From: a bacterium
Lineage (GTDB): Bacteria > UBA8248
NCBI GenBank assembly: GCA_965199855.1
Contig: OZ241326.1
Coordinates: forward strand, 2,208,001 to 2,272,000
Direction of reading: 5' to 3'
DNA: 64,000 nt
Of the stretch, positions 2,977 through 56,587 are shown one piece after another (position 1 is the stretch's first letter; every line of letters begins with the position of its first letter). The translations under genes and the position numbers were made by a program. The notes beneath the pieces were generated by a model, which was not told the origin of the DNA, made no database searches, and was given only the letters and a program-made list of their open reading frames with translations.

Positions 2977-3528
2977 TCATCCCTCTTTGGCGAACGCCTT
3001 CCAGCCCTCCGCGAAAATGTCGCGCCCCCGGCTGTCCACGGCGACCACGACGGGAAACCTCTCGACCACCAGCCGGCGAATCGCCTCGGTTCCCAAATCC
3101 TCGTAGGCGATGAGCTCGACCTGCCTGACGCGCCGCGCCAGCAGGGCGGCCGCGCCGCCGACGGCGGCGAAATAGACGGCGCCGTGCCGCGCGATGGCCT
3201 CGACCACCTCGGGGCTTCTGCCCCCCTTGCCTATCATGCCGGCGAGGCCGAGCTCCAGCATCCGGGGCGTATAGGCGTCCATCCGGCCGCTCGTCGTGGG
3301 CCCCGCCGAGCCGATGATCGCCCCGGGCCGGGGCGGCGTCGGCCCCACGTAGAAAATCACCTGCCCCCTGACCTCGATGGGGAGCACCTCCCCGCGCCCC
3401 GCCTCCTCCAGCATCCGCTTGTGCGCCGCGTCGCGCGCCGCGTAGAGGACGCCGCTCAGCTCGCACGCCTCCCCCATCTCCAGGGACTCCGCAACGCCCG
3501 CGCCCAGCGGCAGGTCGATGGCCCTCAT
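2977..3528 (-). CDS. Fe-S hydro-lyase (fumarate hydratase class I) beta subunit
   Basis: ARDAAHKR, GPTTSGRMD, IGKGG, DLGTEAI; TCA-cluster context. Confidence 0.9.
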   Translation of the reverse strand: MRAIDLPLGAGVAESLEMGEACELSGVLYAARDAAHKRMLEEAGRGEVLPIEVRGQVIFYVGPTPPRPGAIIGSAGPTTSGRMDAYTPRMLELGLAGMIGKGGRSPEVVEAIARHGAVYFAAVGGAAALLARRVRQVELIAYEDLGTEAIRRLVVERFPVVVAVDSRGRDIFAEGWKAFAKEG

Positions 3529-3529
3529 C

Positions 3530-4372
3530 CTAGAGCGCGGCCTCGGCGTGGCGATGCGCGTGGCACTCCACGTTCACGCAGATCGGCAGCGCCCCGATGT
3601 GGCAGGCGTAGGCTTCGACGTGGGCGGCGACGCAGGTAACCTCGCCGCCCATGCCCATCGGCCCCACGCCGGTCGCGTTCACCGCCTCCACGACGTCGCG
3701 CTCCAGCTCGGCGAGGAGCGAATCGGGGCTGGGCGCGCCCAGCTCCCGGAAGAGCGCCCATTTGGCCAGCAGCGCCGCCTTCTCGATCGAGCCGCCCAGG
3801 CCGATTCCCAGCAGAACGGGGGGGCAGGGATTGCCGCCCGACTCGAAGACGCGCTCGACGATCGTCCGGATGACGCCCTCGCGCCCGTCGGAGGGCTTGA
3901 GCATCCGCGCCATGCTCATGTTCTCGGCGCCCGTCCCCTTGGCGGCGAAGTAGAGCTTCAGGCGATCCCCGGCGACGACGCGGTAGTGGATGACGGCGGG
4001 CGTGTTGTCCTTCGTGTTCACGCGCCGGAGCGGGTCGTTCACCACCGAGCCGCGCAGGTAGCCGTCCCGGTAGCCCTGGCGAATCCCCTCGTTGATGGCG
4101 TCCTCCAGAAGCCCGCCCGTCACGCGGACGTCCTGCCCCAGCTCGACGAACACGATGGAGACGCCCGTGTCCTGGCAGTAGGGCACGCGCTCGGCGGAGG
4201 CGAGCGCCGCGTTCTCGGTGATCTGGTCGAGCACCATGAGGCCGAGGGCGGAGGTCTCGCGGCCCTTCGCCTCCTCGACCTTCGCCACGTAGGCGGGATC
4301 GACGCGGTAGTTCGACTCGATGGCCATCTCGCGGATCCTGGCCGTCACCTCGCCCGCGTCTATCGTTCGCAT
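3530..4372 (-). CDS. Fe-S hydro-lyase (fumarate hydratase class I) alpha subunit
   Basis: PYCQDTG, KGTGAENMS, GNPCPP, CHIGALP, CHAHRH; start trimmed to MRTIDAGEV (ATG 4372). Confidence 0.9.
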   Translation of the reverse strand: MRTIDAGEVTARIREMAIESNYRVDPAYVAKVEEAKGRETSALGLMVLDQITENAALASAERVPYCQDTGVSIVFVELGQDVRVTGGLLEDAINEGIRQGYRDGYLRGSVVNDPLRRVNTKDNTPAVIHYRVVAGDRLKLYFAAKGTGAENMSMARMLKPSDGREGVIRTIVERVFESGGNPCPPVLLGIGLGGSIEKAALLAKWALFRELGAPSPDSLLAELERDVVEAVNATGVGPMGMGGEVTCVAAHVEAYACHIGALPICVNVECHAHRHAEAAL

Positions 4373-4421
4373 GGCCCGCCCGTCCCCAAGGCGCTCGCCG
4401 CCCGCCGCGGAGGCGGCGCGC

Positions 4422-8166
<3,745 letters not shown>

Positions 8167-44473: not shown

Positions 44474-44655
44474 CCCCGAAGCTCCCCGGAGAAGCGAGGC
44501 GCGCGCCGGAATCCCCGGCGAGGCCCGGCGCAATCCCGAATCGCCGGGACGCGGCGCCGCTCCGCCGGGCGCGTTGACACGCAATCGCCGCAGGGTGGAT
44601 CATGGCGGGCGTCGAGCGCAACCATCATCCCAAACCAGCCTGCGGGAGCCGCGAG

Positions 44656-45828
44656 ATGAGCCTGCAAACCGAAGCCGCGCTTCAGTTCGACCTGGACGAC
44701 ACGCAAAAGATGCTTCGCCGGACGGTGCGGGAGCTCTCCGAGCGCCACATCGCCCCGCGCGCCGCCGAAATCGACGAGAACGAGGAATACCCCGAAGACA
44801 TCTATCAGATGCAGAAGGAGCACGGCCTCCTCGGCATCTTCTTCCCCGAGGAATACGGCGGCGGCGGAATGGGCTTTCTGGGCGGCTGCGTCGCCATCGA
44901 GGAGATCGCGCGCTTCTGCTCGAACTCCCCGCTCTTCATCGTGCTCAACATGCTCTCGAGCCGCGTCATCGACCTGAGCGGCACGCCGGAGCAGAAGACG
45001 CATTATATGACGGGCCTCGCCAGGGGCGAACTTCGGGGCTCCTACGCCCTCACGGAGCCCCACGCGGGCTCCGACGCCGGGAACATCCGCACGCGCGCCG
45101 TCCGGGAGGGCGAGGAGTGGGTCATCAACGGGACGAAATGCTTCTGCACGGGACCCGACAAGGCGGACTTCATCACCGTCGCCGCCAAGACCGACCCCGG
45201 CGCGGGCGCGCGGGGCATCACCTACTACGTCGTCCCCACGGACGCGCCCGGCTTCAGCATCGACAAGCACGAGCGCAAGATGGGGATGCGCGGCATCTCG
45301 ACCTGCATGCTGCGCTTCGACAGCGTGGCCGTGCCCCTCGAGAACCAGATCGGCGAGCTGAACCAGGGCTTCAGAACCGCGATGATCGGCTTCAACCAGA
45401 TGCGGCCCGCCATCGGCGCGCGCGCGGTCGGCCTCGCCCAGGGGTGCCTCGACTACGCCGCGGGCTACGCGAAGGAGCGCGAGGCCTTCGGGAAGCCCAT
45501 CGCCCGCCACCAGGCCGTCCAGTTCATGCTCGCCGACATGTTCATGGACATCGAGGCGTCGCGCCTGCTCGTCTATCGCGCCGCCTCGATGGTGGACGCC
45601 GGACAAATCGGCAAGGAGAACGCCCGGTATTTCTCGACGGCCAAGACCTACGCGGCCGACATGGCGATGAAGTGCGCGATAGACGGCATCCAGGTGCTGG
45701 GCGGGGCGGGCTACATGAAGGATCACCCGCTCGAGCGCTTCATGCGCGACGCCAAGCAGATCCAGATCGTCGAGGGGACGAGCCAGATTCAGCGGATCAT
45801 CATCGCCCGCAACCTGCTCGACCTCTAG
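44656..45828 (+). CDS. Acyl-CoA dehydrogenase 1
   Basis: ALTEPHAGSD, INGTKCF, KMGMRG, REAFGKPI, QVLGGAGY, EGTSQIQR. Confidence 0.95.
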   Translation: MSLQTEAALQFDLDDTQKMLRRTVRELSERHIAPRAAEIDENEEYPEDIYQMQKEHGLLGIFFPEEYGGGGMGFLGGCVAIEEIARFCSNSPLFIVLNMLSSRVIDLSGTPEQKTHYMTGLARGELRGSYALTEPHAGSDAGNIRTRAVREGEEWVINGTKCFCTGPDKADFITVAAKTDPGAGARGITYYVVPTDAPGFSIDKHERKMGMRGISTCMLRFDSVAVPLENQIGELNQGFRTAMIGFNQMRPAIGARAVGLAQGCLDYAAGYAKEREAFGKPIARHQAVQFMLADMFMDIEASRLLVYRAASMVDAGQIGKENARYFSTAKTYAADMAMKCAIDGIQVLGGAGYMKDHPLERFMRDAKQIQIVEGTSQIQRIIIARNLLDL

Positions 45829-45840
45829 GAGCGCGCGGAG

Positions 45841-47010
45841 GTGGGGCCGGGGGCGGAGCCGCCCGCCGCGTTCGGGCTGAGCCGGGCGCAGCGAGCGCTG
45901 GGAGAGAGGGTCTATGCGCTGAGCCGCCGCCGCGTCGCGCCCCGCGCCGCCGACATCGACGAAAGCGGGGAATACCCCGAGGATATTTTCCAGCTCCTGA
46001 AGTCCCGCGGCCTCCTCGGCCTCTACGTCCCCGAAGAATACGGCGGGGCGGGCCTCGGCGTCCTGGAGACGTGCGTCGCCATCGAGCAGATGGCGCGCTT
46101 CTGCTCGAACTCTCCCCTTTTCTTCTCCGTCCACCTGCTCGCCACCCGCGCCGTCGCCATAGGCGGAACCGGGGCGCAGAAGAGCGTCTGGCTCCGCGGC
46201 GTAGCCCGGGGCGAGCTGCGCCCCGCCTTCTCGCTCACCGAGCCGCACGCGGGCTCCGACGCCGCGAACATATCGGCGCGCGCGGCGCGGGAGGGGGACT
46301 CGTGGGTCATCAACGGCCAGAAGTGCTACTGCACCGGCGCGAGCGTCGCCGACTTCCTCACCGTGGCGGCGAAGACCGAGGCCGGGGCGGGGGCGCGCGG
46401 CGTCTCCTTCTTCATCGTTCCCAAGGGCGAATTCCGGGTGGGCCGCCGCGAGAGGAAGATGGGGATGCGGGGAATCCCCACCTGCGAGGTGTTTTTGGAG
46501 AACGCCCACGTCCCCCTCGAAAACATCATCGGCGATCGGGCGACGGGCTTCAGAACCGCCATGCTCGGCTTCAACCAGGCGCGGCCCGCCATCGGCGCGC
46601 GCGCGGTCGGCCTCGCCCAGGGGTGCCTCGACCACGCCGCGGGCTACGCCAAGGAGCGCGAGGCCTTCGGGAAGCCCATCGCCCGCCATCAGGCCGTCCA
46701 GTTCATGCTCGCCGACATGTTCATGGACGTCGAGGCGTCGCGCCTGCTCGTTTACCGCGCCGCCTCGATGGTGGATAATGGGCGCTATCAAAAGGAGGAC
46801 GCGCATTTCATCTGCGCCGCGAAGTGCTTCGCGTCCGACGCGGCCATGAAGGCGGCCGTGGACGCGGTTCAGACCCTGGGCGGGGCGGGCTATACGAGGG
46901 ATCACCCGCTCGAGCGGTTTATGAGAGACGCCAAGCAGCTGCAAATCATCGAGGGGACGAACCAGATTCAGCGCATGGCGATCGCCCGGAATCTGCTGGG
47001 CCTGAACTGA
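45841..47010 (+). CDS. Acyl-CoA dehydrogenase 2
   Basis: SLTEPHAGSD, INGQKCY, KMGMRG, QTLGGAGY, EGTNQIQR. Confidence 0.95.
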   Translation: MGPGAEPPAAFGLSRAQRALGERVYALSRRRVAPRAADIDESGEYPEDIFQLLKSRGLLGLYVPEEYGGAGLGVLETCVAIEQMARFCSNSPLFFSVHLLATRAVAIGGTGAQKSVWLRGVARGELRPAFSLTEPHAGSDAANISARAAREGDSWVINGQKCYCTGASVADFLTVAAKTEAGAGARGVSFFIVPKGEFRVGRRERKMGMRGIPTCEVFLENAHVPLENIIGDRATGFRTAMLGFNQARPAIGARAVGLAQGCLDHAAGYAKEREAFGKPIARHQAVQFMLADMFMDVEASRLLVYRAASMVDNGRYQKEDAHFICAAKCFASDAAMKAAVDAVQTLGGAGYTRDHPLERFMRDAKQLQIIEGTNQIQRMAIARNLLGLN

Positions 47011-47040: not shown

Positions 47041-47661
47041 ATGAGCCGGACCATTGAAATTCTCACGCCCACCTCGTTCGTCCGCGCGGGCGATCATCCC
47101 CTGGCGGCGCGGCCGGGAGAGCTCGGCGGACTCAGAATCGGCTTTTTCCACAACAACAAGCCGAACGCCGACGCCCTCCTGGAGCGCATCGAGGAGCTCC
47201 TCGCGCGGGAGGACGAAACCCTCCGCTTCGTCCGCTGGGGAAAGCCGAACCCGACGCTGCCGGAGGCGCGCCTCGGCGAGTTCATCAAGCAGGTGGACGC
47301 GGCCGTCTGCGCGGTGGGCGACTGAGGCAGCTGCACGTCGTGGAGTATCCACGACGCGGTGGAGATGGAGAAAGCGGGGATTCCGACGGCCACGTTCTGC
47401 TCCAGCGAATTCTCCGCCCTGGGCGCGAACGAGCGGGTCGCCCTGGGGATGCCGGGCCTTCCGATAGTCGTCGTGCCGCACCCCGTGGGGGGGATTCCGC
47501 CCGAACGGGCGCGCGCCCTGGGGGACGCGGCGCTGGACGAGGTTCGGCGCGTCCTCACGGAGGACGCGGAATCGCTGCGAAGGGAATACCGCGAGCGCGC
47601 CTACGCCCCGCCCCGCCGGACGGTGCGCCACAAGGCGCTTTTCGCCCGGGGGTCGGCGTGA
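47041..47661 (+). CDS. UGSC-family selenoprotein (TGA 47323-47325 read as Sec), 206 aa
   Basis: Track ORFs 47041..47325 and 47359..47661 are in one frame: ...AVGD-U-GSCTSWSIHDAVEMEKAGIP...PHPVGG; hairpin immediately 3' of the TGA. Confidence 0.88.
47336..47356 (+). promoter_or_regulatory. Putative bacterial SECIS hairpin
   Basis: CGTCGTGGA-GTA-TCCACGACG perfect 9-bp stem beginning 10 nt after the TGA, with G in the apical loop. Confidence 0.75.
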
Positions 47662-47707: not shown

Positions 47708-48799
47708 ATGAGCGATCCCTCCTCCGAAGCGCCTCCAGAAGCGGCGTCCCTCCCGAGCGAGCGGGTGAAGGTTCGGGACGCGCCCGAGGCGCTCGCGCGT
47801 CTCCTCGAGGCGAGGGGATGGGGCGACGGCCTGCCCGTCGTTCCCCCCACGCCCGGGCGCGTCGCCCGCATGGTGGAGGGGGCGGGGCTGGCCGCTGGGG
47901 AGGAAATCGGCCGGATGCCGCCCCGCCAGGGAGTCGTCACGGTCGAGGCGCTCGCCGTCAACGCCGTGATGGCCGGATGCCTCCCGGCCTACATGCCCGT
48001 TCTCGTGGCGGCGGCGCGGGGGGCGCTCCAGCCGGAATTCTCGCTCCACGCGCTCCAGGCGACGACCCACCCGGTGGCGCCCCTGATCATCGTGAACGGC
48101 CCCGTCGCCGCGAGAATCGACATGAACGCGGCGTATGGATGCTTCGCCCCCGGAAACCGGGCGAACGCGACGATTGGCCGCGCGATGCGCCTGACGCTCC
48201 TGAACGTAGGCGGGGCGAGCCCGGGCGTTCTGGATCGCGCCACCCAGGGCTCGCCCGCGAAATACGCATTCTGCATCGCCGAGAACGAGGAGGAATCCCC
48301 CTGGGAGCCGCTGCACGTCGAGCGCGGCTTCGCGCCCGGGGAGAGCGCCGTCACGGTCGTGGGCTGCGAGGGGCCCCACAACGTCAACGATCACGTGAGC
48401 CACGCGGCGGAGGGCATTCTCGCCGCCGCCGCCGACACGATGTCCGTCATGGGCGGCAACAACTTCTATCTGAGGGGCGAGCCGCTCCTCGCGCTCGGCC
48501 CCGAGCACGCGGCGACGATAGCGGGGGACGGGCTGTCGAAGGCGGACGTGAAGCGAAGGATTTTCGAGCTCGCCCGAAAGCCCGCGCGCCAGCTCCGGCG
48601 CGGCGCCATGTGGGGGATGCAGACCTGGGGGGAGGAGATAGCGAGAAACGAGGGAGATGACGACTACGAGATTCCGCTTCTGGATCGGCCCGAAGACCTC
48701 ATCGTCATCGTGGCGGGCGGCGCCGGCAAGCACTCCTCCTACCTGCCGACGTTCGGCCCCACGCGCTCGGTGACCACCCGGGTCGATTCGCCGGCCTGA
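47708..48799 (+). CDS. Uncharacterised protein accompanying the UGSC selenoprotein
   Basis: GWGDGLPVVPPT, AVNAVMAGC.P.Y.PV, NRANATIGRA, AENEEESPWEPLH, VAGGAGKHS; good coding pattern. Confidence 0.85.
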   Translation: MSDPSSEAPPEAASLPSERVKVRDAPEALARLLEARGWGDGLPVVPPTPGRVARMVEGAGLAAGEEIGRMPPRQGVVTVEALAVNAVMAGCLPAYMPVLVAAARGALQPEFSLHALQATTHPVAPLIIVNGPVAARIDMNAAYGCFAPGNRANATIGRAMRLTLLNVGGASPGVLDRATQGSPAKYAFCIAENEEESPWEPLHVERGFAPGESAVTVVGCEGPHNVNDHVSHAAEGILAAAADTMSVMGGNNFYLRGEPLLALGPEHAATIAGDGLSKADVKRRIFELARKPARQLRRGAMWGMQTWGEEIARNEGDDDYEIPLLDRPEDLIVIVAGGAGKHSSYLPTFGPTRSVTTRVDSPA

Positions 48800-48976: not shown

Positions 48977-49378
48977 ATGCCGAAGCAGCAGATCGACTCG
49001 GAGAAGGTGAGGCCGGTGGCCGCGTATTCCACGGGCTGGAAGGTGTCGAACGGGCATCTCGTCATGCTGGCGGGCCAGGTGGCGACCGACACGGAGGGCC
49101 GCACCGTCGGCGGAGACGACATCAAGGCCCAGGCGCGGCAGGTCTATGAGAACGTCAAGGCCGCGCTCGAGGCCGCCGGCGCCGGAATGGAGGACGTCAT
49201 CCGCCTCACCGTCTATCTCACGGATCGGGCGAATTTTCCGGGAAGCGCGGAGGTGCGGCAAGCCTACTTCAGCCCGCCCTATCCGGCGAGCACGCTCCTC
49301 ATCGTGAGCGGACTGGCGAACCCGGAATGGCTCATCGAAATCGACGCCGTCGCCTTCGTGGAGGACGGGACGCCGTGA
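48977..49378 (+). CDS. RidA/YjgF family protein
   Basis: YS...LAGQV, QARQVYENVKAAL, YPASTL..V.GL..PEWLIEIDAVA. Confidence 0.92.
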   Translation: MPKQQIDSEKVRPVAAYSTGWKVSNGHLVMLAGQVATDTEGRTVGGDDIKAQARQVYENVKAALEAAGAGMEDVIRLTVYLTDRANFPGSAEVRQAYFSPPYPASTLLIVSGLANPEWLIEIDAVAFVEDGTP

Positions 49379-50232
49379 GAGGCGGCAGGGCGGTTTCCGA
49401 GACGCTCGTTCTCGTGAAGGGGGGCGGCGACCTCGCCACCGGCGCGGCGCACCGCCTGCGCCGCTCGGGCTTTCCCGTGATGATGACGGAAATCGAGCGT
49501 CCGACCATGGTCCGCCGCGCCGTCTCCTTCGCCGAATGCCTCTACGCCGGCGAATGGCGGGTGGAGGGCGTGGCTTCCGCGAGGGCGGAGGGCGGCTCCC
49601 TGGAGGAGAAAATCGCCGGCGCGCGCGCGCTGATGGAGGCGGGCGCCGTTCCCGTGATGGTCGATCCGCGCGCCGAGGCGGTCGCCCGCGTCCGGCCCGC
49701 CGTCGTGATCGACGCGATTCTCGCCAAGCGAAACCTCGGCACCCGCATCGAGGACGCCGAGGTGGTCATCGGCCTGGGGCCCGGCTTCACGGCGGGGGTC
49801 GATTGCCACGCCGTCATCGAGACCGCCCGGGGGCACGACCTGGGGCGGGTGATACTCGAAGGGGCGGCGAAGCCGGACACGGGCGCGCCGGGCGCCATCG
49901 CGGGCTACGCCGCCGAGCGGCTGCTGCGCGCCCCGCGCGCCGGCGCGTTCGCCTCCGCCGCCCGCATCGGGGACGCGGTGCGGGCGGGACAGGCCGTCGC
50001 CCGGGTGGACGGGGAGGAGGTGACGGCCCGCATCGACGGCGTCCTGCGCGGCCTGCTCAGGGACGGCATCGAGGTGAGCGCGGGCTTCAAGGTGGGCGAC
50101 GTCGACCCCAGGGCCGAGCCTTCCCACTGCGTGACGATATCGGACAAGTCGCGCGCCGTCGGCGGCGGCGCGCTCGAGGCCGTCATGATGTTCCTGTTCG
50201 GCGTCTCCCCGGCCGCGGAGCGCGCGAATTGA
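49375..50232 (+). CDS. yqeB: Selenium-dependent molybdenum hydroxylase system protein YqeB
   Basis: VKGGGDLATG, VRRAVSF, DAILAKRNLGT, GLGPGF, IETARGHDLGR, KVGDVDPR, ISDKSRAVGGGALEA. Confidence 0.9.
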   Translation: MRGGRAVSETLVLVKGGGDLATGAAHRLRRSGFPVMMTEIERPTMVRRAVSFAECLYAGEWRVEGVASARAEGGSLEEKIAGARALMEAGAVPVMVDPRAEAVARVRPAVVIDAILAKRNLGTRIEDAEVVIGLGPGFTAGVDCHAVIETARGHDLGRVILEGAAKPDTGAPGAIAGYAAERLLRAPRAGAFASAARIGDAVRAGQAVARVDGEEVTARIDGVLRGLLRDGIEVSAGFKVGDVDPRAEPSHCVTISDKSRAVGGGALEAVMMFLFGVSPAAERAN

Positions 50233-51113
50233 GTCCCGACATTCTGGCGGAAACGGTGGAAAGCGGCGCCTACCGCATCGGGCGCAGCGAAATCCCGATC
50301 AACCAGGCGAACGGCAACGCCTTCGTCCCCCCCGCGCAGTTCTATCTGGCGGCGGGCGACGCGCTCGAGCGCATCGCGTGGGCGGTGAGCCAGAACCTCC
50401 CCGTCCTGCTCGTCGGAGAGACCGGCGTCGGCAAGACGCTCTCGGTGCGCTACCTCGCCCACATGACGAACAACGGCTTCAGGCGCGTGAACCTCAACGG
50501 CATGACCACGGTCGATGAATTCGTGGGCAAGCTGATGATCAACGAGCAGGGCACCTACTGGGTGAACGGCATCCTGATCGACGCGATGCAGTCGGGAGAC
50601 TGGCTGCTCATCGACGAGATCAACGCCTGCCTGCCCGAAATCGCCTTCTGCCTCCACAGCCTGCTCGACGACGACCGCATGATCGTCCTCTCGGAGTATG
50701 ACGGCCGCGTCGTCAAGCCCCATCCGGACTTCAGGCTCTTCGCCAGCATGAACCCCCACGAGGACAGGAGATACGGCGGCACGAAGCCCCTGAACGAGGC
50801 GCTTCTGGATCGCTTCCCCGTCACCGTGAGGATGGACTACCTGCCCTTCGAGGCGGAGGTCGAGGTCATCATGCGGCAGAGCGGGAACGGCGACGAGGAG
50901 CTCGTCCGGCGCATGGTGCGCGTGGGCCACGACGCGCGCGAGGCCATGAGGAACGAAAAGGTGTTCTGCACCTTCAGCACCCGGCGCCTGATTGACTGGG
51001 CGCGCATGGCGGCGCGGTTCGACCCCATGGAGGCCGCCGTCTCGACCATCTTCAGCAAGGTCAACTCGTTCGACGCCAAGGTGCTCGAGGACATCGTGGA
51101 CAACCACTTCTAG
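50229..51113 (+). CDS. AAA+ ATPase, MoxR/CbbQ/NorQ type
   Basis: TTG start overlapping the yqeB stop; GETGVGKT (Walker A), LLIDEIN (Walker B), ASMNP, LLDRF, FSTRRL. Confidence 0.9.
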   Translation: MSPDILAETVESGAYRIGRSEIPINQANGNAFVPPAQFYLAAGDALERIAWAVSQNLPVLLVGETGVGKTLSVRYLAHMTNNGFRRVNLNGMTTVDEFVGKLMINEQGTYWVNGILIDAMQSGDWLLIDEINACLPEIAFCLHSLLDDDRMIVLSEYDGRVVKPHPDFRLFASMNPHEDRRYGGTKPLNEALLDRFPVTVRMDYLPFEAEVEVIMRQSGNGDEELVRRMVRVGHDAREAMRNEKVFCTFSTRRLIDWARMAARFDPMEAAVSTIFSKVNSFDAKVLEDIVDNHF

Positions 51114-51128
51114 CCGGGAGACGCAGGC

Positions 51129-52898
51129 ATGGAGCGCCGACGCGCCCGCCTCGAGACCCTCGCGCAGGTGACGGCGCGCGACTACGGCCTCGCCCTGCTG
51201 TTCGGCTCCCGGACGGAGACCGGGGACGACGCCGTCCTCGTCGAGGACCCGGAGCGGACCCTGGCGCGCCTGGGCGGCGGCCTCGACGACGAGCGCGTCC
51301 TGCGATACCAGAAGGGCATGACGCTCATCGAGGTGGCCCGCAGGCTCCAGGGGACGCTTCGCTGGGCGGGCCGCGCGGCCCTCGCCAACCGGGAGACGCC
51401 GGGCCTTTTCCACCTCTGGCGCGCCCTCGAGGACGCCAGATGCGAGAACCGCCTCGCCGAGTCGCTGCCCGGCACGAGAAAGAATTTCCGCGCCTTCGTC
51501 CGTCCCGCGATCGAGGACGCCGAGCGAAGCCACGCGCGGGGGGAGCTCCCCCTGCTTCTCCAGATTCAATGGGGCATCTACCTCGCCGGCGTCGGCCAGA
51601 CGCCCGGCGCCGCCTCCTCAAGGCCCGGGGATTTGCCCTCGGCCTGGTTCGATTCCGTCATCGCCCAGATTCTTCAGAGGCTCGTCCCGATCATCGACCG
51701 CGCCTGCGCGGCCAAAGAGCCGAAGACCGCCTTCGACTGCGCGAACGAAATCTACGACGCCGTGCGGCGCTTCCTCACCGAGGAGCAGCTCGCGCAGATG
51801 CGCGAGAGCGAGGAGCTCTCGGAGCTTCCGGATGAAATTCTGGAGAAAATCGAGAACCAGAAACTCCAGGGGGAGGAGTCCGAGTCGCCGGAGGCGCTCC
51901 ACCCGGAGGCGCTCGACGAGGTGGACGCGGACGAGGGCGAGCAGGTCGAGCTCACGCCCGAGGAGCTCGCCGCCCTGGGCCGCTGGGCGTCTCCCTGGTT
52001 CGAGATGGAGGGCGGCGGGAAGGAAGTCCACCCGACGGCGGAGCATCCCGACGAGCGCACCATCGTCCTGCCCCCGGAGGGCAAGGCGGAGGAATACGCG
52101 GCGATCATGGACGGCGCGGGCAGCCACATCAAGGTGCTGGCGTGGAAGCTCACGCAGATCATTCAGGAGAGAGCCTACGCCCGCTTCAGCGGCTCGCACC
52201 GCTCCGGCAAGCTGAACGTCCCGAAGCTCTGGAAGCAGCGCCTGGGCAAATTTCATCTTTTTCACCGCAAGGAGGAGCCCGAGAAGCTCGACGTCTGCTT
52301 CACCCTCCTCGTGGACGAGAGCGGCAGCATGAACCGCGAATCGAAATACGTAGCCGCCAGGGAGGCGACCGTGTTCTTCGCGGAAGTCCTCGACCGGCTG
52401 GACGTGCCCTTCGAGGTGATCGGCTACTCCACCGAGAGCTCGGAGGCGGCCATGGCGGCCGCGCTCGGCCACATCCCCGCCTTCAAGTTCAGGCACATCC
52501 GGCACTCCCCCCTTCAGCACCGCATCTACAAGGGCTTCGAGGACGCCTTCCCCCAGGTCAAGAACCGTCTCGTCAACATTTATCCGCGCTTCAACAACTG
52601 GGACGAGGAGCATCTGCTGTTCGCCTACCGAAGGCTCAGCCAGCGGCCCGAGGAGGAGAAGATCATCATCATCACCTCGGACGGCCAGCCCAACGGCGAC
52701 GCGGCCCACCTCGTGAGCGCGGTCGGCCGCCTCCAGGCGCTCGGCGTGCGGATCATCGGCGTCGGCGTGGTGGACCCCTTCGTCGAGCAGATCTACCCGA
52801 ACCACATCGTGGTGCAGGACCTCTCCCAGCTCTCCACGGAGCTGGTGAACATTCTGCGGCGCGAGCTGCTCGGGGGGGCGGAGGGCCGCCCTTGGTAG
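51129..52898 (+). CDS. vWA-domain partner protein (CobT/NorD/CbbO-like)
   Basis: ALEDARCE N-terminal motif, acidic linker, RSGKL, MIDAS LVDESGSM, ITSDGQP. Confidence 0.88.
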   Translation: MERRRARLETLAQVTARDYGLALLFGSRTETGDDAVLVEDPERTLARLGGGLDDERVLRYQKGMTLIEVARRLQGTLRWAGRAALANRETPGLFHLWRALEDARCENRLAESLPGTRKNFRAFVRPAIEDAERSHARGELPLLLQIQWGIYLAGVGQTPGAASSRPGDLPSAWFDSVIAQILQRLVPIIDRACAAKEPKTAFDCANEIYDAVRRFLTEEQLAQMRESEELSELPDEILEKIENQKLQGEESESPEALHPEALDEVDADEGEQVELTPEELAALGRWASPWFEMEGGGKEVHPTAEHPDERTIVLPPEGKAEEYAAIMDGAGSHIKVLAWKLTQIIQERAYARFSGSHRSGKLNVPKLWKQRLGKFHLFHRKEEPEKLDVCFTLLVDESGSMNRESKYVAAREATVFFAEVLDRLDVPFEVIGYSTESSEAAMAAALGHIPAFKFRHIRHSPLQHRIYKGFEDAFPQVKNRLVNIYPRFNNWDEEHLLFAYRRLSQRPEEEKIIIITSDGQPNGDAAHLVSAVGRLQALGVRIIGVGVVDPFVEQIYPNHIVVQDLSQLSTELVNILRRELLGGAEGRPW

Positions 52899-53719
52899 CG
52901 GAAGGCGGCCTCGCGCGGATGATCGGCGCCCGAGCGGGGCGGATCGTCGCGGCGGTCGGGGCGGGGGGGAAAACGAGCCTGCTCACGGCGCTCGCCCGGG
53001 AGTTTCACGCCCGAAGCGGCGCGCCCGCCCTCCTCACGACGACCACCAGAATTTTCGCGCCCCTGCCGGAGGAGGGGATTCCCCTCGCCCTGGGCGACGC
53101 CGCCGCCCTCTCGAGGAGGCTGCGCCCCTACATGAGAGCCTGCGGCGTCTCCTGGCTCGCCCGCGGACGCGAGGGCCGCGCGCCGGTTCCGGGCCGGGAG
53201 GGCGAGCGCCGCATGAAGCTGCGCGGCTTCGCGCCCTCCGAAATCGAGGGATTGCGTCTCGCGGAGGGCCTCACCCTCATCGAGGCGGACGGGGCGAGGC
53301 GCCTGCCCGTCAAGGCGCCCGGCGCGCGGGAGCCCGTCCTGCCCGAAGGCGTGGACGCCGTGCTGGGCGTCGTGGGGCTGGACGCCCTGGGCGCGCCCCT
53401 GGACGAGGCCCATGCGTTCCGCCCGGAGCTGCTCTCGCGGATATGCCGCCTGGACGCCGGCGCGGAGATCACGGCGGAGGCGATCGGGGCGCTGTGCGCG
53501 CACCCCGAGGGGCTGTTTCGCAAGGCGGACGGCGGCGCGCGCAGGTGGATCGTCCTCAACAAGGCCGATTTGGAAGCCTCGCTGGAAAAACGAAGAAAGA
53601 TCGCCTATACTATCCGGGAAATGGCGGGAAAGCCCCATGGGCCGGCGGACGGGGTTCTCCTGACCTCCTGCCTGAAGAACAGGCCGGAAGTTTTGCTGCG
53701 AATCGGGCCGGACGCCTGA
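52892..53719 (+). CDS. yqeC: Selenium cofactor biosynthesis protein YqeC
   Basis: VGAGGKTS, TTTTRI, LIEADGARRLPVKAP...EPV, VVGLDALG, HPEGLF, LNKAD; start TTG 52892 or ATG 52919. Confidence 0.88.
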   Translation: MVAEGGLARMIGARAGRIVAAVGAGGKTSLLTALAREFHARSGAPALLTTTTRIFAPLPEEGIPLALGDAAALSRRLRPYMRACGVSWLARGREGRAPVPGREGERRMKLRGFAPSEIEGLRLAEGLTLIEADGARRLPVKAPGAREPVLPEGVDAVLGVVGLDALGAPLDEAHAFRPELLSRICRLDAGAEITAEAIGALCAHPEGLFRKADGGARRWIVLNKADLEASLEKRRKIAYTIREMAGKPHGPADGVLLTSCLKNRPEVLLRIGPDA

Positions 53720-53749
53720 GAGGAGGCGGCCCGCCTGCGCGGAGGAGAG

Positions 53750-54895
53750 ATGAGCGAGGACGTTTTCAGGGAAATGGCGAGGATGAAGGAGAAGGGGCAG
53801 GCGGGCGCGCTCGCCACCGTCGTGGCCCGCAAGGGCTCCGCGCCCATGAGCGGCGACGCGAAGATGCTCGTGCGCGAGGACGGCAGCGCCGAGGGCACCG
53901 TCGGGGGCGGCTGCCTGGAGGCCGAGGTCTGGGAGACCGCGATGAGCGTCCTCGAAACGGGCGCGCCCGAGAAGCTCTCCTTCGACCTCACCCAGAAGGA
54001 GGCGGAGGACAGCGGCCACATCTGCGGCGGCGTGGTGGAGATACTGGTGGAGCCGCTCCGGGCGTTTCCCCGGGAGCTGCTCGATGAGATCAACCGCGTG
54101 AAAAACCGGGGCGGAAGTGCCGCGCTGGCGACCATCGTCCAGCCGGGGGCGCTCGACATCCCGAAGCCCGAGGCCGGGAAAATGCTCTTCAGGCGCGACG
54201 GCAGCTCCGTGGGGGAAATTCCGCGCTATTCGGCGGAAGTCTGGGCGGAGAGCGCGCAGGTGATTCGCCAGGGCAGCCCCACCCTCCTGCACTTCAGCCA
54301 GGGCGCCGCGCGCGGCGGAGGAAAGAAGCCCGCGCCCGGCGAGGCGACCGAAATTTTCGTGGAGCCCATCTCCGGCCAGCCGCTCGTCTATATCTTCGGC
54401 GGCGGGCACGTATCCTTCTGCGTCGCGCAGGCGGCCTGGCTCGCCGGCTTCCGGGTCGCCATCGTGGAGGACAGACCCTCCTTCGCCAACAAGGAGCGCT
54501 TCCCGATGGCCGAGGCGTTCCACGTGGGCGATTTCCCGGAAGTTTTCAGGGAAATTCCGGTGGACGAGGCGGACTACCTGGCCATCATCACCCGGGGCCA
54601 CGCGAACGACGAGGTCGTCCTCGAATGGGCGATGAAGACGAAGGCGCGCTACATCGGGATGATCGGCTCGAAGAGCAAGGTGCTGCTCACCTACCGCCAT
54701 CTTCAGGAGAAGGGCTTCGCGCGGAGCGAGCTCATCGAGCGCGTCCACGCGCCCATCGGCCTGGACATCGGCGCCGACACGCCGGGCGAGATCGGAATCG
54801 CCATCGCCGCCGAGTTCGTCCGCCATCGCCGCCGGGGCGAGGCGGAAAGCGAGGGCGCGGGCAGCAAGCGGGTGCGCCTGGGAAGAAAGGCGTAA
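53750..54895 (+). CDS. XdhC/CoxF-family Mo-cofactor chaperone
   Basis: ATVV...GSAP, GTVGGGCLE, ICGG, IFGGGHV, TRGH..D, YIGMIGS, HAPIGLDIGADTPGEI. Confidence 0.93.
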   Translation: MSEDVFREMARMKEKGQAGALATVVARKGSAPMSGDAKMLVREDGSAEGTVGGGCLEAEVWETAMSVLETGAPEKLSFDLTQKEAEDSGHICGGVVEILVEPLRAFPRELLDEINRVKNRGGSAALATIVQPGALDIPKPEAGKMLFRRDGSSVGEIPRYSAEVWAESAQVIRQGSPTLLHFSQGAARGGGKKPAPGEATEIFVEPISGQPLVYIFGGGHVSFCVAQAAWLAGFRVAIVEDRPSFANKERFPMAEAFHVGDFPEVFREIPVDEADYLAIITRGHANDEVVLEWAMKTKARYIGMIGSKSKVLLTYRHLQEKGFARSELIERVHAPIGLDIGADTPGEIGIAIAAEFVRHRRRGEAESEGAGSKRVRLGRKA

Positions 54896-55780: not shown

Positions 55781-56587
55781 ATGCAGGATCGATACACGGG
55801 CGACGTAGGGGATTTCGGCAAATACGGACTGCTCCGCGCCATCACCCGGCCCGGGATTACGAAAAAAGACGGCCAGGAGACATTGAGCCTCGGCGTCGTG
55901 TGGTATCGCCATCCCGACGAGAAAGACACGAACGACGGCGAGCATATCGACTATCTCGGCCCTTCCGGGCGCGAGAATTTTCGGAAGTGCGATCCTGAAC
56001 TATATGATTGCCTGAGCAAGATCGTCAGATATGACTCCAAAACCAGGAAGGCAAAGGGTCGCAGGGCGATATCGAAGATCGAGAATAGCGAGATACTCGG
56101 TTCGCAAACTCGTTTTTTCGGCAGGCGATGTCCTTATGACGCGGATGCTCGTAAAAAATGGCGCCGAGAAGCGTTGAACGAAATGAAGGGATGCGATTTG
56201 GTATTCCTCGACCCGGACAACGGGCTCAGGTGCAACCAGAACCTTGACAGCGGAAAACACGCCTACCTTGAGGAAGTCTTGAGCTTTGTTCTTCAAGGCA
56301 GCGCAGTAATTTTCTATCATCATCCTGACAGGTGAAAAACGCATAATGAACAAATCAGAAAACTCGCTCAATATATTGCTCGCAAGTTGGATAAAAATCA
56401 CCGCGTATCCGCTTTCCGTTACCGCAGAGGGAACTCCCGGGCGTTTTTCATCATTTGGCCGCGGGATCGGCAGAAAGTATTCAAGCCCCGCATGAAGGCG
56501 ATTCGTGATGGCCTGTGGGGCCGGGAATGTCGCTTTGAACTCACGGCGCGTTCCATCTCCGGCAAAAGCAGGGGCAACCCGAGTTAG
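55781..56587 (+). pseudogene. Low-GC hypothetical gene interrupted by an in-frame TGA (56333-56335)
   Basis: MQDRYTGDVGDFGKYGLLR...VFLDPDNG; the same frame continues after the TGA: KTHNEQI...RYRRGNSRAFFI. Confidence 0.7.

Follow-up and report, generated by a model that had tools for sequence, protein, structure and literature searches.

The window analysed here, a stretch of 64,000 nucleotides from a bacterium of the GTDB lineage UBA8248 (GenBank assembly GCA_965199855.1, contig OZ241326.1, positions 2,208,001 to 2,272,000), holds two short open reading frames (ORFs) separated by a TGA codon, and raises the question of whether they form a single selenoprotein gene and what its product would do. 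Under translation table 11 the ORFs encode 94 aa (47041-47325) and 100 aa (47359-47661) in one frame, and the next in-frame stop after the TGA is at 47659-47661. Reading the TGA as selenocysteine (Sec) gives a single 206-aa protein with the segment VDAAVCAVGD-U-GSCTSWSIHD, and the first-pass annotation, which had joined the two ORFs through one in-frame TGA, was correct on this point. The features concerned are as follows.

47041..47661, + strand, UGSC-family selenoprotein gene (206 aa, U95 in D-U-G-S-C, ATG at 47041)
47323..47325, + strand, in-frame UGA for selenocysteine U95 (Cys in homologues, TGA in orthologues)
47336..47356, + strand, bacterial SECIS hairpin (9 bp, loop G23-U24-A25, numbered from the U of UGA)

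Two checks had been proposed for the Sec reading, the presence of selA, selB, selC and selD and a Cys at the TGA column of homologues, and both gave positive results. The host genome, a single contig of 3.04 Mb that is 100% complete, carries selA (548 bits), selB (372 bits) and selD (344 bits), all above their cut-offs, together with a tRNA-Sec with the anticodon UCA; selD itself contains an in-frame TGA. Among 163 database homologues, position 95 is occupied by Cys in 143, by a gap in 11 and by another residue in 9, and the motif CGSC is present in 111. The TGA is unchanged in all 15 orthologues (80-88% identity, with third codon positions differing by about 33%). In these orthologues both halves of the gene and the 11 codons after the TGA change mainly at third positions, with 0/165 second-position and 49/165 third-position changes in the 11 codons from the TGA to the first downstream start. 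A GGAGG motif precedes the ATG at 47041 and is absent before the internal starts at 47359 and 47365. Related genomes (41, of which 27 have the family) gave 184 family matches, and one TGA was found in 150 of the 150 listed; the host genome has four members of the family, each with one TGA. As the contigs of a second study keep the TGA and the hairpin despite nine differences within the gene, the TGA is not a sequencing error.

It is thus almost certain that 47041-47661 is a Sec-encoding gene, in which UGA95 is read as Sec through a coding SECIS. Gene callers do split this stretch at the TGA into two ORFs, as would be expected of two separate short genes or of a pseudogene in which the TGA is a true stop, a reading made hardly credible by the full Sec machinery of the genome, the Cys found in the TGA column of homologues, the third-position bias past the TGA and the internal starts without a ribosome-binding motif. 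A Sec-form UGSC gene is likewise split or truncated at its TGA in the public annotations of a Paracoccus plasmid (6360-6929) and an Acidovorax plasmid (3365-3924), and in the Paracoccus plasmid selB lies 4 kb from the Sec-form UGSC gene.

The 206-aa protein was also correctly placed among the UGSC-containing proteins by the first reading. It scores 136.4 bits against NF041046 (cut-off 125) and 161.8 bits against PF24696 (cut-off 25), and as these curated cut-offs are passed the gene belongs to the known family. UGSC-containing proteins, a name given by Zhang and Gladyshev (PMC1976440, PMC2398784), are described as a predicted selenoprotein family of unknown function (PMC1976440, PMC2398784, PMC9312934, PMC13188914) and are listed among the five most abundant selenoproteins in the Global Ocean Sampling data (PMC2398784, PMC13188914). 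With this gene the family, present in catalogues since 2007, gains a further member.

The hairpin was found as originally described, with a perfect 9-bp stem (47336-47344 paired with 47348-47356) starting 10 nt past the TGA and a GTA loop that provides the G. Its folding energy is low when the hairpin is folded alone (z = -4.9) and not significant with wider flanks (-0.38 and -0.33), so that folding energy alone is weak evidence. Position and loop go beyond chance: a stem of at least 9 bp at the same place with G in the loop follows 2 of the 1545 coding-like TGA stops in the host genome, and a 5-bp core with G23-T24 follows five, which are the four UGSC paralogues and one rhodanese-like gene. 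Synonymous recoding of the gene gave an equally good stem in 2.2% of 500 trials, and recoding of other family members did so in 0-44%, some paralogues being not beyond chance. As recoding sometimes yields equally good stems, the stem is partly dictated by the peptide, which alone accounts for about six of the nine pairs.

In each of 45 distinct sequences from 63 loci, positions 17-21 pair with positions 27-31 to give the core (U of UGA = 1). At pair 18/30, 36 sequences have G-C and 9 have A-U, via two synonymous changes that represent one event in the orthologue clade, and at pair 21/27 the split is 25 C-G to 20 G-C. The loop bases G23-U24, named as fixed in the E. coli SECIS element (PMC8659212), are present in 45/45 and are encoded by AGT or TGT, which are rare choices in the host genome (1.6% for Ser and 5.6% for Cys, respectively). 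Judged from these sequences, the hairpin is a real SECIS, and 47041-47661 offers a very clean case of one. The rhodanese-like sulfurtransferase gene, named from its motifs, has its TGA at genome position 2480513 on the - strand, at the active-site position (Y-U-R), followed by a 9-bp hairpin with a G23-U24 loop like the UGSC SECIS; rhodanese selenoproteins are listed in PMC9312934.

What the protein might do was approached through its resemblance to GrdB and PrdB, which the first-pass annotation had noted for the active-site context. When an alignment of 117 of the 163 UGSC homologues (near full length, under 260 aa) was compared with a GrdB/PrdB profile, residues 75-160 matched with an HHalign probability of 95.9% (E 5.5e-9, 77 columns), and with 92.9% after masking of the CxxC motif; 30 shuffles gave at most 0.87% and the reversed profile 0.55%. 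The GrdB/PrdB profile was built from nine sequences, six GrdB-like from relatives and three PrdB-like of the host genome, which were taken out of 33 loci by motif pattern. As the match exceeds the shuffled and reversed controls, the likeness reflects real homology of the Sec segment. TIGR01917 (GrdB) matches the 206-aa protein at E 1.3e-4, and at E ≤ 0.1 the matches among 118 members fell on GrdB (TIGR01917) in 50, GrdF in 25, TIGR01918 in 25, PrdB in 12 and GrdH in 12, with one or two for any other family. Residues 75-160 are thus homologous to the Sec segment of GrdB/PrdB, and the resemblance is real but partial.

The GrdB/PrdB context stands for this segment of 77 columns and does not extend to family membership. 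The cut-offs of TIGR01917, TIGR01918 and TIGR04483 are missed (21 bits vs 602; 15 vs 65), no PF07355 domain was matched in the 206-aa protein at E ≤ 0.05, and the STUG and UxxCxxC motifs described for GrdB (PMC10838667, PMC13188914) are absent, the sequence reading GD-U-GSCTSW. No GrdE/PrdA-type subunit (PF09338) was detected in the complete host genome, both control genomes being positive; GrdA (PF04723) gave no match in the host genome, and none in the positive control either. By these measures the UGSC protein is not a member of the GrdB family. Three PrdB-like selenoprotein genes, with UxxC and a hairpin after each TGA, are located near 480, 236 and 69 kb of the host genome, which is complete and lacks PrdA/GrdE.

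The predicted structure of the UGSC protein (pLDDT 92.9) is a flavodoxin-like alpha/beta fold of five alternating strand-helix units, in which U95 lies where strand 3 ends and helix 96-111 begins. The 2008 paper on the family called the fold 'likely Trx-like' (PMC2398784), whereas the five-unit topology of the model argues against a thioredoxin fold, and no thioredoxin is among the matching structures listed. These are flavodoxin-like, azoreductase, Rossmann-type, small GTPase and binding-protein chains, none of which stands out, and the fold is generic, its best match (Z 10.6) being a designed protein. The methyl-CoM-reductase activation chain 8s7v_H (Z 10.2) was rejected as a relative, being tied with unrelated binding proteins. 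Sequence searches with UGSC, with the protein encoded downstream or with their alignments found no credible solved relative, and none was found for GrdB; a literature search gave no paper on a PrdB structure.

The gene that follows encodes a protein that recurs with UGSC.

47708..48799, + strand, partner subunit (363 aa, 'Unknown_1' of PMC2398784 Fig. S1A), next gene after UGSC

The partner carries the Unknown_1 segment, with conserved C91, T119, N153, R158 and E192; C91, flagged already in 2008 (PMC2398784), is kept in 113 of 118 diverse partners and C189 in 98. It matches no family in Pfam or NCBIfam, has at least 7991 homologues and is 70% identical to a Nitrospinota MAG protein, which would probably put the host near that phylum. 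Its model (pLDDT 92.1) had no Foldseek match to solved structures at E ≤ 0.001; the best structural Z, 6.3, covers residues 217-351 only, with the N-terminal half barely tested. Homology to GrdE/PrdA was considered and rejected (0.14% against the GrdE profile).

In a survey of 78 loci from many phyla, which started from the partner and counted partner-less UGSC genes only in the host genome, a UGSC gene was located within 6 kb of the partner in 66 and was adjacent on the same strand in 61; several of the other 12 loci are short or cut contigs. The 77 UGSC genes near these loci comprise 67 with TGA, 5 with Cys and 5 unread. Partner sequence is fused in 25 of the 163 UGSC matches, and such a fusion is in print in the supplement of PMC2398784. 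Three of the four UGSC genes of the host genome touch a partner gene. UGSC and its partner therefore very probably constitute a two-subunit unit. The genome has nine partner genes for its four UGSC genes, as expected if the partner sets specificity.

Four partner genes in tandem (genome 383076-387204) group with two orphans in a well-supported clade, none of them adjacent to a UGSC gene. A UGSC gene of the G-U-G-S-C type (genome 392 kb) is located about 5 kb past the tandem genes, and a single Sec subunit may be shared by the six partners of this clade. UGSC-partner fusions in Vibrio and Sporomusa plasmids (6326-8011 and 3284-5008) have D-M-G-T-S instead of D-(U/C)-G-S-C, and both are beside aconitase X and DUF126 genes. 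With Met for U/C and the second Cys missing, these two indicate that the fold can function in the absence of the redox motif, and they form a subfamily with a possible separate role.

A source of electrons is suggested by thioredoxin reductase. Of 40 long partner homologues, 31 are fused to a thioredoxin-reductase domain, all with CxxC, a proportion that overstates the fusion frequency since only 8000 candidates were scored and the nearest kin of 28 of the 31 are in one clade. Five of the 31 were scanned against NCBIfam, with 201-337 bits for TIGR01292, under its cut-off of 343. In a tree that took in 12 of the 31, the fusions occupy three places kept apart by starred branches, which implies three fusions, or one gain and two losses. 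Among metagenome loci of the main fusion clade 13 of 38 reach the reductase domain. UGSC is directly upstream in all ten reductase-fusion loci with upstream DNA, six in Sec and four in Cys form, two of these ten being near copies and two carrying a frame change within the fusion.

Unfused reductase genes accompany the pair as well. In the plasmid loci examined (10 of 24), a trxB-like gene is beside the pair in four. It is annotated as trxB, in the gene run of the pair, in Roseovarius, Variovorax and Arthrobacter, with trxA also in Arthrobacter, and the fourth, that of Haloterrigena, has a trxB-like gene in the locus. The order is partner-UGSC-trxB in Roseovarius sp. THAF8 and trxB-trxA-partner-UGSC in Arthrobacter sp. 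ERGS1:01. Among the 78 genome loci two have such a gene beside the pair, compared with 0.3% of 13-kb windows of the host genome, which is not significant alone when counted over long loci (2/53, p 0.10). No trxB is near any UGSC locus of the host genome, whose single trxB is unlinked, and the electron path for the 47041-47661 copy is therefore drawn from its relatives. On these associations the pair is likely to be thioredoxin-fed. Neither the GrdB homology nor the thioredoxin-reductase link of UGSC was found in the literature searched, mostly without subscription papers, supplements and curators' comments.

The genes on either side of the pair were inspected for a substrate.

44602..47010, + strand, two acyl-CoA dehydrogenase genes (30-nt gap to the UGSC ATG; promoter-like site at 44574-44603)
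48977..54895, + strand, RidA-like, yqeB, MoxR-type AAA, VWA, yqeC and xdhC genes (selenium/molybdenum-hydroxylase maturation genes)

The acyl-CoA dehydrogenase genes are upstream in 15/15 orthologous loci, a link to the pair shown only within the genus, and they are probably in the same operon as UGSC. The maturation cluster has no hydroxylase gene beside it, and none of its genes is grouped as a recurrent neighbour in three or more of the 78 partner loci; it is probably a local neighbour with a separate function. Further downstream, at 55781-56401, lower-GC-looking ORFs follow a ComF-like gene amid GC-rich genes and are possibly an acquired fragment.

Across the 78 loci the neighbours are varied catabolic genes, including SDR (12 loci), TctC (10), CaiB (8), amidase (7), enoyl-CoA hydratase (7), luciferase-like (6) and acyl-CoA dehydrogenase (5), with no fixed third gene or substrate clue among them. 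CoA-related genes occur in 16/53 long loci against a background of 19% (p 0.03), the control being poorly matched and taken from the host genome only. The 392-kb paralogue is followed by hydratase- and dehydrogenase-like genes, named from motifs. An acyl-CoA substrate, with the thioester as activating group, is an attractive proposal and not an established one. A phosphosulfolactate synthase (ComA-like) gene near the pair in Arthrobacter and Natrinema plasmids may point to organosulfur substrates in part of the family. In Methanobacteriaceae the surroundings are not catabolic: a Cys-form UGSC and its partner are set among housekeeping genes that resemble, by their motifs, thiC and the gene for lysyl-tRNA synthetase. 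In several phyla DUF6282 (PF19799) is repeatedly encoded alongside UGSC and its partner or between the two.

Glycine reductase works with thioredoxin, its Sec forming a selenoether that is thiol-cleaved to a selenenyl-sulfide, and in proline reductase a dithiol serves for the cleavage of a C-N bond (PMC10298544); FarE and GrdI indicate that GrdB-type enzymes can lack a pyruvoyl subunit (PMC10838667). On the basis of this chemistry the pair is read as a reductase. UGSC would be the small, selenium-bearing subunit of a two-subunit oxidoreductase, and the partner would bind and polarise the substrate, as GrdE/PrdA do in the clostridial enzymes, although its fold is unrelated to theirs and nothing points to a pyruvoyl group in it. 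U95, as the selenolate, would attack a carbon with a heteroatom leaving group (C-N, C-S, C-O or C-halogen), and C98 would then release the product and form a selenenyl-sulfide, to be reduced by NADPH through thioredoxin reductase, directly or via thioredoxin; for the 47041-47661 copy that reductase would be encoded by the single, unlinked trxB. By analogy with the characterised enzymes, the chances are even that the pair is such a thioredoxin-fed, pyruvoyl-free Sec reductase, with substrate binding by the partner, attack by U95 and resolution by C98; GrdB-like bond cleavage by Sec, as the first reading had it, is about evenly poised as well. Paralogues probably differ in substrate, the likely candidates being small organic acids or acyl-CoAs of catabolic pathways.

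The main rival, appreciably less likely, reverses the roles of the subunits: UGSC would be only an electron carrier or resolving subunit, like thioredoxin or GrdA, and the catalytic residue would be C91 of the partner, re-reduced by UxxC and thioredoxin reductase. The strong conservation of C91 noted above fits such an arrangement, as do the fusion of thioredoxin reductase to the partner and not to UGSC, and the possibility that one UGSC serves several partners. Set against these points, the homology of UGSC is to the catalytic Sec segment of GrdB/PrdB and not to thioredoxin, and one plasmid operon has its own trxA beside the pair. Outside the redox motif, UGSC has further conserved polar residues (N38, K40, D94, D105 and H147-P148), which suggests a substrate site in UGSC.

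It is improbable that the pair works without redox chemistry or depends on a metal, with U95, C98 and the partner cysteines as ligands of a metal or cluster, as in an Fe-S hydro-lyase. Such a reading would draw on the best Foldseek match of the partner, the fumarate hydratase alpha subunit (E 1.2e-3, TM 0.30; Z 5.7), on the aconitase X genes beside the two motif-less fusions and on the conservation of C189; the fumarase-type matches are, however, at background level and confined to residues 221-352, and the repeated thioredoxin reductase links would be left unexplained.

The stand-alone GrdB-like catalytic domain originally proposed was not borne out and is very unlikely, since the GrdB homology and the 392-kb gene, about 5 kb from its nearest partner gene, are outweighed by the adjacency in 61/78 partner loci, the 25/163 fusions and the three of four host paralogues that touch a partner gene. 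Still less likely is a role of UGSC in donating or handling selenium for molybdenum-hydroxylase cofactor maturation with YqeB, YqeC and XdhC, whose genes lie downstream on the same strand, as this link was seen in only one near relative among the 78 loci and is absent in the other paralogues and in the Cys forms of methanogens, haloarchaea and actinobacteria.

Returning to the two-subunit reductase, a wider reading, slightly less likely than not, can be put forward. UGSC and Unknown_1 might be a so far undescribed third branch of glycine/proline-reductase chemistry, a small, pyruvoyl-free selenoenzyme driven by NADPH and thioredoxin. In this scheme a shared Sec subunit would work with interchangeable partner subunits of a fold without a solved relative, and heteroatom groups would be reductively stripped from many organic substrates, in aerobes, archaea and symbionts. 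If true, this would give a function to one of the most abundant aquatic selenoprotein families. The question of the family's role is now testable, as a two-protein unit with a likely reductant (thioredoxin reductase) and a GrdB-like active segment, and compact operons with the Cys form occur in cultured hosts (Arthrobacter, Roseovarius and Natrinema).

Compared with known systems, the product of 47041-47661 is closest to the UGSC family itself, with which it shares cut-offs passed across the whole domain, the UGSC motif, the Cys homologues and the Unknown_1 partner; as a gene, this copy has no distinguishing feature. In AhpF/AhpC and other thioredoxin-reductase-fed modules a flavin disulfide reductase is fused to, or encoded with, its client. 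The present pair differs from such modules in that a thioredoxin or peroxiredoxin fold is not apparent in either subunit.

With GrdB/GrdF/GrdH and PrdB the UGSC protein has in common a Sec segment made of a strand, U-x-x-C, a helix, E-x-x-G-x-P and then (P/G)-H, and with the glycine, sarcosine, betaine and D-proline reductases a two-subunit layout (GrdE/GrdG/GrdI; PrdA) and a dithiol or thioredoxin reductant. It differs from GrdB/PrdB in that the Sec is not preceded by a PF07355 domain, GD-U takes the place of ST-U and UxxCxxC is absent; moreover, its partner is unrelated to GrdE, and many UGSC hosts are not amino-acid fermenters. Fluoroacetate reductase of Synergistota, as described in PMC10838667, is composed of full GrdB and GrdE homologues (FarB and FarE) that feed GrdA/GrdC, whereas the UGSC pair has neither. 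The two systems would share a GrdB-type attack of Sec on a polarised bond, as proposed for FarB/FarE, and a second subunit that makes no pyruvoyl group (PMC10838667).
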